Assembly (NCBI GenBank): GCA_035632635.1 | Contig: DASQGL010000074.1 | Location: forward strand, 4,601 to 68,600 | From: Candidatus Limnocylindrales bacterium | GTDB taxonomy: Bacteria > Chloroflexota > Dormibacteria > CF-121 | DNA length: 64,000 nucleotides | Direction: 5' to 3' | Part shown: in pieces, positions 4,808 through 22,352 of the stretch | How positions within the stretch are numbered: position 1 is the stretch's first letter | Layout of the letters: each line of letters begins with the position of its first letter | Made by a program: the position numbers and the translations under genes | The notes under the pieces: model-generated | The model's database searches: none | The model's input: the letters and a program-made list of their open reading frames with translations, nothing else | Told to the model about the DNA's origin: nothing

Positions 4808-6256
4808 ATGATCGCGACCAAGACGGTGTCCGCCTTCATCGGAGGTCGGTTCGAGGAGGCGCGTTCGAAGCAGGTCGATGAGATCCCCAATCCGGCGACC
4901 GGGGAGACCATCGCCCAGCTACCCCACTCGACGCCCGATGACATCAATCGGGCCGTTGAGGCGGCGGTCAAGGCTTTTCCCTCGTGGAGCGAGACGCCGG
5001 TTCCCGACCGGGCCCAGGTGCTGTTTCGCTTCAAGGCGCTCTTCGATCAGCACGTCGATGAGCTGGCCGCGATCGTGACCCGGGAAAATGGGAAGACGCT
5101 CGACGAATCGCGCGGCGAGGTCAAACGCGCGATCGAGGTCATCGATTTCGCCTGCGGCGCTCCGACCCTGATGATGGGGCAGAACCTCGACCAGATCGCC
5201 CGCGGCATCGACGAGGAGCTGACCCGCTTCCCGGTGGGCGTGGTGGCCGGCATCACGCCGTTCAACTTCCCGAACATGGTGCCGCTGTGGATGATCCCGG
5301 TGGCGCTCGCCTGCGGGAACACGTTCGTGCTCAAGCCCTCCCAGCTCACCCCGCTCTCCGCGATGCGGATCGCCGAGCTGCTGGTGGAGGCCGGGGTGCC
5401 GGACGGCGTCTTCAACGTCGTGCACGGCGCCAAGGACACGGTCGACGCCCTGCTCACCCATCCGGACGTCGCCGCCATCTCGTTCGTGGGCTCGGCCCAG
5501 GTCGCCGCCGAGATCTACCGCAACGGGGCGGCTCACGGGAAACGCGTACAGGCGCTCGGCGGCGCGAAGAATCACATCCTGGTCATGGACGACGCCGACC
5601 TCGAACGGTCGGCCCCGCACGTCGTCTCCTCGGCCTTCGGGAACGCCGGCCAGCGCTGCCTGGCCGGCAGCGTCGCGGTCGGAGTCGGCAAGGTCGGGGA
5701 CGCGCTCGTGTCCGAGCTGCGCAGCGAAGCGTCGAAGTTGCGGGTCGGGCCGGGGACCGATCCGAAGACCACCATGGGTCCGGTCATCCGCGGCGAGCGC
5801 AAGCGGCGTCTGATCGAGTACATCGACGAGGCGCAGGCGCAGGGCGCTCAGCTCGTCCAGGACGGACGGGACGGCGGGCCGAAAGACGGCTTCTTCCTCG
5901 GTCCCACGATCTTCGACCGGGTCACCCCGGACATGCGCATCTGGAAGGACGAGCTGTTCGGCCCCGTCCTTTCCGTGGTGCGGGCTGCCGACATCGACCA
6001 GGCGCTCGCGATCTTGAACTCGAGCACCTACGGCAACATGGCGTCGATCTTCACCACCTCGGGCAAGAATGCACGCGAGTTCAAGCGGCGGGCCGAGGCC
6101 GGCATGCTCGGCGTCAACATCGGGGTGGCGGCTCCGATGGCGTTCTTCCCGTTCACCGGCTGGAAGAACTCGTTCTTCGGAGACCTGCACGCCACCGGGA
6201 TGGACAGCGTGCGTTTCTACACGCGGCACAAGGTCACGACGACGCGATGGCTGTAA
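4808..6256 (+). CDS. mmsA: CoA-acylating methylmalonate/malonate-semialdehyde dehydrogenase
   Basis: It is 482 aa and belongs to the aldehyde dehydrogenase family. The MmsA-like N-terminus and the catalytic Cys context GQRCLA are present. Upstream lies the SD aggagga. Confidence 0.85.
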   Translation: MIATKTVSAFIGGRFEEARSKQVDEIPNPATGETIAQLPHSTPDDINRAVEAAVKAFPSWSETPVPDRAQVLFRFKALFDQHVDELAAIVTRENGKTLDESRGEVKRAIEVIDFACGAPTLMMGQNLDQIARGIDEELTRFPVGVVAGITPFNFPNMVPLWMIPVALACGNTFVLKPSQLTPLSAMRIAELLVEAGVPDGVFNVVHGAKDTVDALLTHPDVAAISFVGSAQVAAEIYRNGAAHGKRVQALGGAKNHILVMDDADLERSAPHVVSSAFGNAGQRCLAGSVAVGVGKVGDALVSELRSEASKLRVGPGTDPKTTMGPVIRGERKRRLIEYIDEAQAQGAQLVQDGRDGGPKDGFFLGPTIFDRVTPDMRIWKDELFGPVLSVVRAADIDQALAILNSSTYGNMASIFTTSGKNAREFKRRAEAGMLGVNIGVAAPMAFFPFTGWKNSFFGDLHATGMDSVRFYTRHKVTTTRWL

Positions 6257-19865: not shown

Positions 19866-19901
19866 TGAAAAAACGAAGGAGAGAGGCCTCGGCCTCTCTC
19901 C
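19866..19901 (-). terminator. rho-independent terminator (minus-strand orientation; possibly bidirectional)
   Basis: The stem GGAGAGAGGCC/GGCCTCTCTCC is followed on the minus strand by TTCGTTTTTT. It sits directly downstream of the tiny basic ORF. Confidence 0.6.
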
Positions 19902-19921
19902 CGTACCCTAGTCCGTTTCGA

Positions 19922-19981
19922 CTAGCGGCTCTTGCGCGTCGCCTTCTTGGCCTTCTTGGTGGCCTTCTTCCGGGTCGCCAT
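19922..19981 (-). CDS. 19-aa lysine/alanine-rich basic peptide (MATRKKATKKAKKATRKSR)
   Basis: A consensus SD AAGGAGGTGA lies 4-6 nt upstream of the ATG. The stop is followed within ~20 nt by a strong terminator hairpin with a T-tract. Confidence 0.4.
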   Translation of the reverse strand: MATRKKATKKAKKATRKSR

Positions 19982-20095
19982 GCGTCACCTCCTTATCGCG
20001 TGAGCGGCGGACCGCGGCGCACTCGTCGCTGTGCGCTTACTGCAGATAACGCTCTGTGAAAATGGAACCTTGCGCGATTCGCTGCTTGCGAGCCG

Positions 20096-21073
20096 TCAGA
20101 ACATCGCGAGCTGCTGCGGCTGACGCAGCGGCGCCGCGCGCAGGCCGCGCCGCCGCAGGGCCAGCGCGAGGTCCTCGTCGAAGCCCAGCACCGTATACGT
20201 CATCTGCGGCGCGACCGCCTGCGCGAACTGGCAGAGCTCCTGGAAGTCGGCATGGTCGGAGAGCGGGAACGCCGCGTCGACCTGGAGCCGGTCTTTGAGA
20301 CCCGCGTCCATCGCCCAGCCGGTCAGCGCCGCGAAGCGAACGGTCGCATCAGCGCGAAGCGCCCACGCGCGTCCCGCAGACGGCGGCATGAGCAGCACGC
20401 TGCCCGCTGCCGCGGGCTGGTCGGGGCCCAGCCCCCCGGCGATCGTGCATCCGAGCTCCCGATACACGTCCGTCACGGCGTGCAGTGCCGGGTGCAACGC
20501 AAGCGTGAAGCCCGCGTCGCTCAATGCGGCGATGACCTCCTGCCCCTTGCCCAGGGAGTAGCCGAGCAGGGCCGGCGTCGCCCCCACGTTGAGGACGCCG
20601 CGGCACCAGGCGACCAGCGCCGCGATGACCTCGGCGTGGTCGGGAAACGTGTAGCGCGGCTTACCGAAGGTGCTCTCCAGGATGAGGACGTCGGCGGGGC
20701 GCGGACGGGCCGGGCTCGTCGTGTAGCCGGGCCGAACCTTGAGGTCGCCCGTGTACAGGACCCGGCCGAAATCGGTCTCCAGCAGCGTCTGGGCGGACCC
20801 GAGCACGTGGCCGGCCGAGTAGAAGGTGAGTCGCGTGCCGTCGAGGGCGAGCGGGGTCTCGTAGGGAACGGTGCGCAGGTCGTCGATCGTCACGCGGCGA
20901 TGGCTCACGAGCCGGCCGGTCTGCGGCGTCATGAAGGCGAGCGGGTGCGCCGCCACGTGGTCGCTGTGTGCATGGCTGATCACCGCCCGCGGCCTTCTGA
21001 GCTTGGGGTCGAGCCAGAGGCGTTGCTCCGGGAGATAGACGCCGCTATCCCAGAGGATCGGGTGCGAGATCAT
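20096..21073 (-). CDS. MBL-fold exonuclease, ligase-associated DNA-damage-response exonuclease-like (TIGR04122-like)
   Basis: It has the HAHSDH zinc motif near the N-terminus, and a C-terminal LSDHADFQEL resembling the beta-CASP tail. The protein is 325 aa. Confidence 0.6.
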   Translation of the reverse strand: MISHPILWDSGVYLPEQRLWLDPKLRRPRAVISHAHSDHVAAHPLAFMTPQTGRLVSHRRVTIDDLRTVPYETPLALDGTRLTFYSAGHVLGSAQTLLETDFGRVLYTGDLKVRPGYTTSPARPRPADVLILESTFGKPRYTFPDHAEVIAALVAWCRGVLNVGATPALLGYSLGKGQEVIAALSDAGFTLALHPALHAVTDVYRELGCTIAGGLGPDQPAAAGSVLLMPPSAGRAWALRADATVRFAALTGWAMDAGLKDRLQVDAAFPLSDHADFQELCQFAQAVAPQMTYTVLGFDEDLALALRRRGLRAAPLRQPQQLAMF

Positions 21074-21088
21074 CCCGGCCGAGTGAGA

Positions 21089-21391
21089 CTAATGGTGGGC
21101 GGCCGCGCTCGCGTCGAACAGCTCCTGCCTCAGCGCGCAGTGCATGCAGTAGCGGTGCCCCGGCGGGCCGGCGAAGACGCTGGTCTTGCCGCAGGTCGGA
21201 CAGGTCTCCTTCGCTTCCACGGCGGCGGGCGCCTCTTTCGCCGGTACCACGATCAGGGAGGTGGAGGCTGGCGGCACGTCGGCCGGACGGGTCGCTGCCG
21301 GGGAGGCGTCGGTGGCTGCCGCCGGGTCGCGAGCGTCGTCGCTCACGGCCCTGGCGCGATTGCCGAACAGTCGGGTCAGCCAGGCGAGCAC
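21089..21391 (-). CDS. hypothetical zinc-ribbon protein
   Basis: A 100-aa ORF with CPTCG...CMHC. It lies between the radical SAM and MBL genes on the same strand. Confidence 0.45.
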   Translation of the reverse strand: MLAWLTRLFGNRARAVSDDARDPAAATDASPAATRPADVPPASTSLIVVPAKEAPAAVEAKETCPTCGKTSVFAGPPGHRYCMHCALRQELFDASAAAHH

Positions 21392-21437
21392 TCGCGGCTA
21401 CGGTAGTCCCTTATCGCGTGCCTGTCAAATCGGCGGG

Positions 21438-22352
21438 TCAGGCGAGCAGGGCCAGCTGGGCCGGCTCGGGAGCCGGCTCGATGCGGAAAGCGCGGCGGTC
21501 CCGGATGCCGCGCTCGCGGCGCAGCCGCCCAACGGTCGCCTTGAGAGGGTCGCTGACGGCGTTCGGCGCGTAGGCGGCGGCCCCGGGGAACAGCTGCGCG
21601 TAGCGGGCGAGCAGGTGCGGATACTCGCGCGTGAGGAATTCCAGGTAGTGCTCCTTCGTCCCCGGCTTCAGGTAGACGACATTGGCCCAGACGAAGCACG
21701 CTCCGGCCTCGGCGGCCGCCGCGACCGTCCGATCGAGCTGGGCGGGCGCATCGCTCAGTCCCGGGAGGATGGGCGCCATCCCGACTCCCGCCTCGATGCC
21801 GGCATCGACCAGCCGCGTGAGGATGCGAAGCCTGGTGCGGGGTGGTGGCGTCGTCGGCTCGGTCTTCGCCCAGACCTCCTCATCGACCGTGGGGACGCTG
21901 AAGGTCACCGTCAGCCTGGCTCGCGAGGCGAGCTGCGTGAGCACGTCGAGATCGCGGACGATCATGGTGCCCTTCGTGATCAGGGAGACCGGGGTCCTGA
22001 AGTCGGAGAGCGCCTGAAGGCAGTGGCGGCTGAGGCGGTACCGGCCCTCCGCCGGCTGGTAGGGGTCGGTCGCGGTGCCGAAGGCGATCGTCTCCCGCTT
22101 CCAGGCCCGGCTCGACAGCTCACGTCTGAGGACCTGGGCGACGTTCACCTTGACGCCGATCCGGCTGGAGAACCCCTGTCCCGGATCCCGGTCGGCCAGC
22201 CTGGCGTGCGCGCGGGCGAAGCAGTACACGCAGCTGTGCACGCAGCCCTGATAGGGATTCAGCGACCAGCGGAATCCCATGTGCGCAACCCGGTTCAGGG
22301 CGCTCTTGCAGTCGATCTCGAAGTACTCGCGTTCGGGCATGGGGTGTTCCAT
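21438..22352 (-). CDS. radical SAM protein, SplB/DNA-photolyase-like (Rv2578c-like)
   Basis: It has a CxxxCxxC cluster (CVHSCVYC) near the N-terminus. The protein is ~300 aa. Confidence 0.75.
   Translation of the reverse strand: MEHPMPEREYFEIDCKSALNRVAHMGFRWSLNPYQGCVHSCVYCFARAHARLADRDPGQGFSSRIGVKVNVAQVLRRELSSRAWKRETIAFGTATDPYQPAEGRYRLSRHCLQALSDFRTPVSLITKGTMIVRDLDVLTQLASRARLTVTFSVPTVDEEVWAKTEPTTPPPRTRLRILTRLVDAGIEAGVGMAPILPGLSDAPAQLDRTVAAAAEAGACFVWANVVYLKPGTKEHYLEFLTREYPHLLARYAQLFPGAAAYAPNAVSDPLKATVGRLRRERGIRDRRAFRIEPAPEPAQLALLA

Follow-up and report, generated by a model that had tools for sequence, protein, structure and literature searches.

A window of 64,000 nucleotides (64 kb, the whole stretch of DNA analysed here; contig DASQGL010000074.1 of the assembly GCA_035632635.1, Candidatus Limnocylindrales bacterium) was found to carry a micro-gene of 19 codons on its minus strand, the product of which, MATRKKATKKAKKATRKSR, is strongly basic. 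The open reading frame (ORF) was under frame-specific purifying selection as a protein-coding gene in a set of related loci, and the micro-gene is very probably real and translated. It represents a new family of polybasic bacterial micro-protein, unannotated in the databases searched and unusual in its size, its conservation and the strength of its signals.

Identification of the micro-gene and its expression signals

The ORF runs from an ATG at 19981-19979 to a TAG at 19924-19922 and encodes 19 residues. It is not extendable in the 5' direction because an in-frame TGA lies two codons upstream of the ATG, inside the Shine-Dalgarno (SD) sequence. The extended SD is complementary to the canonical 3' tail of 16S rRNA, the reference being this canonical tail and not the 16S rRNA of the organism itself. 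The distance from the SD to the ATG was 3 nt (CGC), or 6 nt when counted from the GGAGG core. An earlier note on this DNA had given a spacing of 4-6 nt, which agrees with the distance from the core and not with that from the 10-mer AAGGAGGTGA. This 10-mer had one exact occurrence in the window, and was identical in all 16 distinct copies of the unit (16/16), hereafter called the cassette, that extends from a promoter-like block to a terminator. Among the window ORFs of 8-45 amino acids (aa), the micro-gene alone combined at least 40% Lys plus Arg with an SD of at least 5 nt.

The stem-loop 3' of the gene (19902-19877) comprised 11 pairs, 7 of them G-C, and a 4-nt loop, and its orientation fitted the minus strand. 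A G+C-rich hairpin with a T-tract about 10-25 nt 3' of the stop codon was present in 14 of the 16 cassettes, and the stems remained paired from cassette to cassette despite differing sequence. Additional sequence was inserted between stop codon and terminator at two loci, L083 (approximately 100 nt) and L092. With its G+C-rich hairpin and the U-tract behind it, immediately 3' of the gene, the element is an intrinsic (Rho-independent) terminator. A smaller hairpin was predicted at the stop codon of the window copy. The relatives had another hairpin at this site, in which the invariant GCCGC of codons 18-19 was paired with a downstream GCGG(T), and this pairing may account for the invariance of AAGAGCCGCTA. 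An overlapping ORF of 26 aa starting with GTG (19908-19988, in another frame) was rejected as a gene, as it contained premature stops in the relatives.

Frame-specific conservation of the ORF

Relatives were collected as contigs encoding homologues, with 60-76% identity, of the neighbouring metallo-beta-lactamase (MBL)-fold protein, and by a scan of metagenome contigs with the degenerate pattern M-A-T-x-K-K-A-x-K-K-A. The ORF was present in all of the 21 related loci, which represented the 16 distinct cassettes and derived from Limnocylindria-like Chloroflexota. Its location was constant, namely the gap between the MBL gene and a membrane-protein gene. The ATG, frame, length and stop codon were retained throughout, with the exception of one 20-aa variant, MATRKKATKKAARKSTRKSR, which had a 3-nt insertion; this in-frame insertion was the sole indel among the cassettes. 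The earlier note had described a tiny basic gene with SD and terminator that looked expressed despite its size, and had made conservation of the reading frame in orthologous intergenic regions the point to be checked. The comparison bore this out, as ORF, SD and terminator recurred in the 21 loci. In the description itself, only details of strand and spacing needed correction.

The peptides matched that of the window at 16-19 of 19 positions, while the adjacent MBL proteins were 60-76% identical. The variants had the forms MATRKKATKKAKK(A/S)TRKSR and MATTKKA(P/G)KKAKKATRKSR, besides the 20-aa form. The non-basic residues A2, T3, A7, A11, T15 and S18 were invariant, and the length was fixed. 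Nucleotide changes were mostly in third positions (GCG/GCA, CGG/AGG/CGT, ACC/ACG, AAG/AAA, ACC/ACG/ACT and CGC/CGT/CGG), and the stop codon switched between TAG and TAA. Pairwise NG86 estimates for the frame of the micro-gene were 0.033 for nonsynonymous (dN) and 0.243 for synonymous (dS) divergence, giving a ratio of 0.14, whereas the other two frames of the same DNA gave ratios of 1.9 and 3.6. These results showed purifying selection specific to this frame.

The MBL gene, when compared with the window copy, gave dN of 0.18-0.36 and dS of 0.95-1.35. Nucleotide identity was 84-97% for the ORF and 82-93% for the leader preceding it, compared with 66-75% for the MBL gene, and the micro-gene evolved 5-10 times more slowly than this adjacent enzyme gene. 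The conservation of sequence ended at the stop codon, beyond which the terminator persisted as structure alone. Horizontal spread was rejected as the source of the high identity, since the syntenic gap was constant and the variants tracked the divergence of MBL. A scan of contigs by MBL alignment further gave relatives of at most 45% identity, mostly from Verrucomicrobiota, and none with the peptide was found among the matches listed.

Structure of the leader RNA

The putative transcript starts almost directly with a stem-loop. In the consensus fold of 15 sequences by RNAalifold, the stem of this hairpin 1 was kept and its loop differed in both sequence and length. One compensatory change from G-C to A-U (L092) and two G-U variants were observed in the stem, which was formed in the minimum free energy (MFE) fold of the window as well. 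The following element overlaps the ribosome-binding site (RBS) and had two options. In the first, a local hairpin pairs GCGG (20015-20012) with CCGC (20010-20007). In the second, the AUG and the 3' portion of the SD are buried in the helix formed by CGCCGCUCAC (20009-20000) with GUGACGC..GGCG (19988-19976). The local hairpin competes both with this SD-burying helix and with a long-range pairing, predicted by RNAalifold, between GCGGU and the GCCGC of codons 18-19. The sole C-to-U change in the leader, found in L084, co-occurred with the sole GCG-to-GCA change in codon 2, forming one compensatory pair. The fold of the window transcript had a z-score of -3.5.

The leader and the synonymous sites of the ORF were clearly constrained beyond the coding need. 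This constraint fits translational control or stabilisation of the mRNA, and is also compatible with a dual-function RNA. No Rfam 15 family matched in overlap with the cassette at E up to 1. Outside the cassette, a sub-threshold match to the proteobacterial small RNA sX6 was seen at 20109-20213 on the plus strand, opposite to the MBL coding region (score 19.4 bits, gathering score 40, E = 0.07), and is most likely due to chance.

The cassette as a unit of its own

The sequence signals indicate a putatively monocistronic, independent unit of approximately 208 nt (19868-20075, minus strand). Reading along this strand, the stop codon of the 325-aa MBL gene at 20096 was followed by a spacer of about 20 nt, the promoter-like block, the leader of about 60 nt and the SD. 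About 110 nt 5' of the ATG were conserved in all cassettes, consisting of the block, 4-7 variable nt and the leader, and the sequences 5' of the block were unrelated among cassettes. The window copy of the block comprised GCAAG (20073-20069), 17 nt and CGTTAT (20051-20046). The sigma-70 scan gave 0 sites at this block, and a regulon search with it matched only the cassette itself, the block having a single occurrence in the window. The arrangement TGCAAG-N16/17-CGTTAT is one that we take to resemble extracytoplasmic function (ECF)-type promoters, a resemblance on which none of the conclusions relies. From the conservation and spacing we infer that the block acts as a promoter, with a transcription start at approximately 20040.

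In one sub-lineage (L086-088 and L131), the cassette was inverted from the promoter-like element to the terminator, with block and spacing conserved, and followed the gene of the 125-aa membrane protein (TM125) instead of the MBL gene. The inverted copies lie at L086:4136-4415 and L131:4279-4520, the orientation having changed within the same intergenic gap, which in L086-088 is longer than that of the window by approximately 170 nt (415 vs 242 nt). The 3' end of the cassette faced a convergent gene in both orientations, with no gene downstream. Because block and leader moved together with the ORF on inversion, and because the sequence upstream of them was unrelated, the cassette appears to be a unit of its own. 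Conserved upstream signals, a terminator and an orientation that changed apart from the neighbours were thus all found, with promoter activity being putative; read-through from the upstream gene is possible, as no terminator lies between.

The coordinates are collected in Table 1. Synteny across the ETF, SLT, radical SAM (rSAM), MBL, TM125 and MFS genes was conserved in the clade. Within it, the trio of the Rv2578c-family rSAM protein, a protein of 100-109 aa and the MBL-beta-CASP protein was conserved (20096-22352 in the window, minus strand). The earlier note had assigned the micro-gene to the 3' end of an operon that looked like one for DNA repair. This functional link was not upheld, given the promoter-like block and leader of the cassette itself and its inversion in L086-088 and L131. 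The MBL protein, which resembles the ligase-associated exonuclease, scored 197 bits against a cut-off of 325 bits for that family, and no ligase, Lhr or phosphoesterase gene was found among the ORFs examined between 12000 and 28000 of the window. A homology search showed the MBL protein to be identical to P0001, annotated from a metagenome-assembled genome of 'Candidatus Limnocylindrales bacterium', and its relatives of 60-76% identity were labelled Dormibacteraeota or Chloroflexi. Limnocylindrales is placed in Chloroflexota by NCBI.

Table 1. Positions of the cassette elements and neighbouring genes in the window
Feature	Position	Strand	Basis or remark
Micro-gene, 19 codons + TAG, MATRKKATKKAKKATRKSR	19922..19981	-	Translation; ORF kept in 21 loci; dN/dS
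Extended SD TAAGGAGGTGA, 11 nt, in-frame TGA at its 3' end	19995-19985	-	Read from the sequence
Stop-codon hairpin: CTAGTC, loop GAAACG, GACTAG	19908..19925	-	MFE fold
Intrinsic terminator: 11-bp stem, GAGG loop, then TTCGTTTTTT	19868..19902	-	Terminator scan
Leader hairpin 1: GCGCAC, variable loop, GTGCGC	20017..20036	-	RNAalifold, 15 sequences
RBS-overlapping leader element	19976..20015	-	RNAalifold; single-sequence fold
Promoter-like block: (C)TGCAAG, 16-17 nt spacer, CGTTAT	20046..20075	-	Conserved blocks and spacing
Rv2578c-family radical SAM protein	21438-22352	-	314 bits; weak spore-photoproduct-lyase match
100-aa protein, weak sub-threshold zinc-ribbon-like matches	21089-21391	-	Pfam
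MBL-fold/beta-CASP protein, 325 aa	20096-21073	-	197 vs 325-bit cut-off, ligase-associated exonuclease family
125-aa membrane protein (TM125), convergent on the cassette	19476-19853		Gene downstream

Database and literature searches

The 19-aa peptide matched no NCBIfam model, and the 20-aa variant matched no Pfam model, DUF1713 included, at E up to 10. BLASTP against the PDB-verified bS22 of M. smegmatis gave no alignment. As the sensitivity of such searches at 19-20 aa is very low, these null results neither prove nor exclude distant homology. A PDB sequence search returned only N-terminal tails of histone H3, with E about 3 or more, which is not significant; the 20-aa variant (L090:4079-4141) contains ARKST, five residues shared with the H3 tail. 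The 20-aa variant and nine similar ORFs of 20-31 aa were absent from a collection of 15 billion proteins, for which the 19-aa form was too short a query. A scan of viral contigs found generic MATKKKA N-terminal tails only and none of the micro-gene family. No paper with these sequence strings, and nothing on small proteins of Dormibacterota, was found in the literature search, whose useful yield was confined to the precedents of bS22, bL37 and bL38.

The earlier note had seen a resemblance either to bL37 and bS22 or to the tails of HU and Ku proteins. The resemblance stood as one of composition and analogy; as membership it did not, given the absence of NCBIfam, Pfam and bS22 BLASTP matches. 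Membership in the bS22 family (DUF1713 / AURKAIP1-COX24) was not supported by profile or sequence comparison, and neither was membership among bL37, bTHX or eL41, to which the likeness would be one of analogy only.

Properties of the peptide and its possible function

After removal of Met, the peptide would have a mass of 2058.5 Da. The computed isoelectric point is 12.0 and the net charge about +10. The peptide contains 7 Lys, 3 Arg, 4 Ala, 3 Thr and 1 Ser, with no Pro. Lys accounts for 37% of the peptide, compared with 2.6% in 12 confident genes of the window, in which Arg accounts for 8.8%. The charge periodicity peaked at 90-100 degrees in the window peptide (p = 0.03) and in the L084 variant (p = 0.007). 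Because Lys and Arg recur with helical periodicity, a basic face and a face of Ala, Thr and Ser can be predicted.

The function that we favour, tentatively and at somewhat less than an even chance, is by analogy that of a structural micro-protein bound to rRNA or the ribosome, with the leader tuning its translation. Transcription would start from the promoter-like block of the cassette itself, and translation from the maximal SD would yield a polycation of 18-19 residues. When bound, the peptide would fold into an amphipathic helix, one face carrying nine or ten Lys/Arg and the other only Ala/Thr/Ser, and this helix would serve as the structural ligand of a specific polyanionic pocket, most likely of ribosomal rRNA. 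On this reading, bS22/eL41, bL37 and bTHX would resemble the peptide in function without being its homologues. By pairing with the 3' end of the SD and with the AUG, the leader helix would adjust translation, perhaps with the peptide acting in feedback. The 11-nt SD, the strong terminator and the 5' stem-loop of the transcript suggest high expression. A specific structured partner is preferred to generic charge neutralisation because the length is fixed and the small residues are invariant.

Several points weigh against this reading. The composition of Lys, Ala, Thr and Ser is nearer to DNA binders of the H1/HU-tail type than to the Arg-rich and partly hydrophobic bS22 and eL41. No sequence similarity to any ribosomal micro-protein or family was detected, within the low sensitivity at 19-20 aa, and to our knowledge 19 aa is shorter than any known ribosomal protein. 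The micro-gene is not located near ribosomal genes. As dS is also low (0.24 vs about 1.0-1.3 for MBL), part of the conservation is at the RNA level. The leader structure is backed by two compensatory pairs only, its support by covariation being thin because the leader is nearly invariant. Many of the loci are metagenomic and may lack phylogenetic independence.

The main alternative, though a rather unlikely one, is a nucleoid or DNA-binding polycation, which would be the free-standing equivalent of the Lys/Ala tails of H1-like proteins, mycobacterial HupB or Ku. Such a protein would coat or condense DNA or bridge its ends, perhaps aiding the repair-like radical-SAM and beta-CASP neighbours. 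A composition of Lys, Ala, Thr and Ser with Lys far above Arg in a genome of 68% G+C is typical of these tails, for example the C-terminal region of HupB, and MATKKKA... N-terminal tails occur on many unrelated proteins. The only PDB matches, weak as they were (E about 3), were histone H3 N-tails, and the micro-gene lay beside the cluster of rSAM (Rv2578c family), zinc-ribbon and MBL genes in 21/21 loci. However, low-complexity DNA-binding tails vary rapidly in length and sequence, whereas here the length was fixed at 19 aa apart from the one 20-aa variant, the small residues were nearly invariant and the ORF was free-standing. Neither a variable repeat number nor attachment to a folded domain was found. 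The H3 match lacked significance. The adjacency carries little weight, as the synteny of the whole region is conserved in the clade; the cassette is inverted in one sub-lineage, and the MBL homologues of other phyla were without the peptide among the matches listed.

It is less probable still, and on balance improbable, that the product is a structured small RNA or dual-function RNA in which the leader and 3' hairpins, or the 11-nt stretch complementary to the anti-SD, are functional and the peptide is secondary. The high identity of the leader (82-93% vs 66-75% for the neighbouring gene), the constrained synonymous sites (dS 0.24 vs about 1.1), the fold z-score of -3.5 and the invariance of AAGAGCCGCTA, which is able to pair with GCGGU both upstream and downstream, all accord with such an RNA. 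Constraint on RNA alone is nevertheless insufficient to explain the frame-specific selection, the in-frame indel and the invariant ATG, stop and SD; there was no Rfam match and very little covariation.

Two further possibilities are both very improbable. One is a leader peptide of a transcription attenuator, or a 3'-UTR (untranslated region) element of the MBL operon. The classical attenuator layout is that of a tiny ORF with one predominant amino acid and a terminator immediately after it, and the distance between the MBL stop and the conserved block is only about 20 nt, with no terminator in it. Past the terminator, however, a convergent gene has its 3' end, whichever way the cassette is oriented, so that nothing is left to regulate, and in L086 and L131 the cassette follows the TM125 gene instead. 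The other is a precursor of a ribosomally synthesised and post-translationally modified peptide (RiPP), matured by the radical SAM enzyme encoded approximately 1.5 kb away. This enzyme belongs to the Rv2578c/PA0069 family (314 bits) and not to a recognised peptide maturase family, and the peptide has no leader/core organisation and no Cys, being invariant where a RiPP core is hypervariable; moreover, the gene carries transcription signals of its own, and in one lineage its orientation is reversed. A chance intergenic ORF, which the very short length and a size skipped by gene callers might have suggested, was refuted by the comparative data, that is, by the conservation, the dN/dS pattern, the unique SD and the terminator, and can practically be dismissed.

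The micro-gene has textbook signals and is under strong purifying selection, yet it escaped annotation. Should its product prove to be a component of the ribosome or the nucleoid, no shorter one would be known, and it would come from a soil and freshwater lineage known from metagenomes alone. The cassette of approximately 208 nt is small enough to be synthesised, and the 18-mer peptide can be made chemically.

Other tiny ORFs with a MATKKKA-type N-terminus

The metagenome scan also yielded further stand-alone tiny ORFs beginning with MATKKKA... in contigs of other G+C content. Homology among these families is unproven, because the search pattern imposed the shared N-terminus and such tails are common, occurring also on many longer proteins.

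A family of 14-19 codons (MATKKKAKKKAKKK, ...KKH and similar) was found in contigs of 0.53-0.60 G+C, on the plus strand at L096:2492-2536, L114:238-282 and L120:9010-9060, and on the minus strand in L104 (9108-9152), L124, L173 and L196. Its members had a near-consensus promoter (TTGACT-N17-TATACA), an AGGGAGA SD and an intrinsic terminator, as well as two leader hairpins with compensatory differences and many synonymous AAA/AAG flips. In L104 and L120, a thiolase gene was divergent from the tiny ORF and a UvrD-like helicase gene was convergent with it.

Additional families of 15, 17, 19-21 and 22-24 aa had the same stand-alone layout. That of 22-24 codons (MATKKKAAKKAKKGGKKKAAKKR and similar) was located at L117:8371-8442(+), L143:1703-1777(+) and L204:145-216(+), and on the minus strand in L125, L130 and L206. 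Upstream of the ORF, gttgtgcgccgtt was complementary to the downstream gtggcgcaca ... aacggcg, which suggests that the ORF is enclosed in a closed, structured RNA; Rfam gave no match for the loci L117, L125 and L206. In L117 and L125 the ORF adjoined a conserved gene run, whose products are type IV pilus assembly-like by the appearance of their sequences. The family of 19-21 codons (MATKKKAAKKAKKATKKKK and similar), from contigs of 0.66-0.70 G+C, was located at L187:2435-2494(+), L156:1229-1291(+), L151:827-892(+) and in L105 (1862-1921, minus strand). A G-rich extended SD ended with GGGAGGTGAC in L105, L187 and L156 and with AGAGGAGGTGAC in L151, and a terminator was present in 4/4. This family may be the closest sister of the micro-gene family of the window; its leader is unrelated, and it has no MBL neighbour. 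Elsewhere, a confident 6S RNA (L209:1845-2029, minus strand; 78 bits) was found approximately 1.2 kb from one of the ORFs of 15 codons with the product MATKKKAKKKASKKK.

The parallel micro-genes in contigs of other base composition, with their recurrent architecture, suggest a perhaps general and overlooked class. Each member would possess a promoter and a terminator of its own, with two leader hairpins directly adjoining the SD, and would have been systematically missed by gene callers. That the micro-gene is one of a broad unannotated class of this kind (MAT(K/R)KKA..., 14-31 codons, contigs of 0.43-0.70 G+C), consisting of the smallest structural polycations of the bacterial cell, new components that are either ribosomal, in the manner of the bS22/eL41 pocket, or nucleoid-associated, is an idea we hold to be doubtful.

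Comparison with known systems

The closest comparison is with bS22, the analogue of eL41 and mS38 in mycobacteria, Bacteroidota and Borrelia, which fills a conserved rRNA pocket formed by h44/h45/h27 with H68-70. The likeness lies in a tiny, very basic and stand-alone gene, often missed by annotation and extremely conserved within a lineage. With its 30-33 aa, bS22 had gone unannotated in Borrelia; it contains approximately 61% Lys/Arg and differs by one residue across Borrelia groups (PMC10618245). It has been predicted in further phyla, the rRNA pocket being conserved (PMC10618245; PMC12123416). In contrast to the micro-gene peptide with its 19 aa composed of Lys, Arg, Ala, Thr and Ser only, bS22 has 30-33 aa, about as much Arg as Lys, hydrophobic residues and the DUF1713 signature.

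The actinobacterial bL37, eL41 and bTHX share the size class and the range of charge with the micro-gene product, and lie embedded in rRNA as single helices or in extended form. eL41 is a single helix of 24 residues (about 24-25 aa), and bTHX is about 26 aa long. The peptide is shorter than these and dominated by Lys, comes from another phylum and has no NCBIfam or Pfam match. For bL37 a length of 24 aa is given (PMC10081302).

The tails of H1-like proteins, HupB and Ku resemble the peptide in composition, in the (A/T)KKA periodicity and in a plausible affinity for polyanions. They are of variable length and are borne on folded domains, whereas the micro-gene product is free-standing, fixed in length and invariant. 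A similar tail was seen in a DUF6496 protein of L174 (73 aa, minus strand, start at reverse-complement position 5560). By eye, 17 of the 20 positions of the 20-aa variant agree with its N-terminal tail MATKKKATKKAAKKSTRKYS. This tail leads into the DUF6496 domain (58 positions, E = 1e-13), but in the micro-gene a stop codon and a terminator follow. The match may be either low-complexity convergence or a hint at the origin of the peptide.

The leader peptides of attenuators, finally, share with the micro-gene the very small size of the ORF, the strength of the SD, the preference for one amino acid and the terminator immediately behind the ORF. The micro-gene differs in having no gene downstream, in a terminator that simply closes the unit, and in purifying selection on the peptide sequence.

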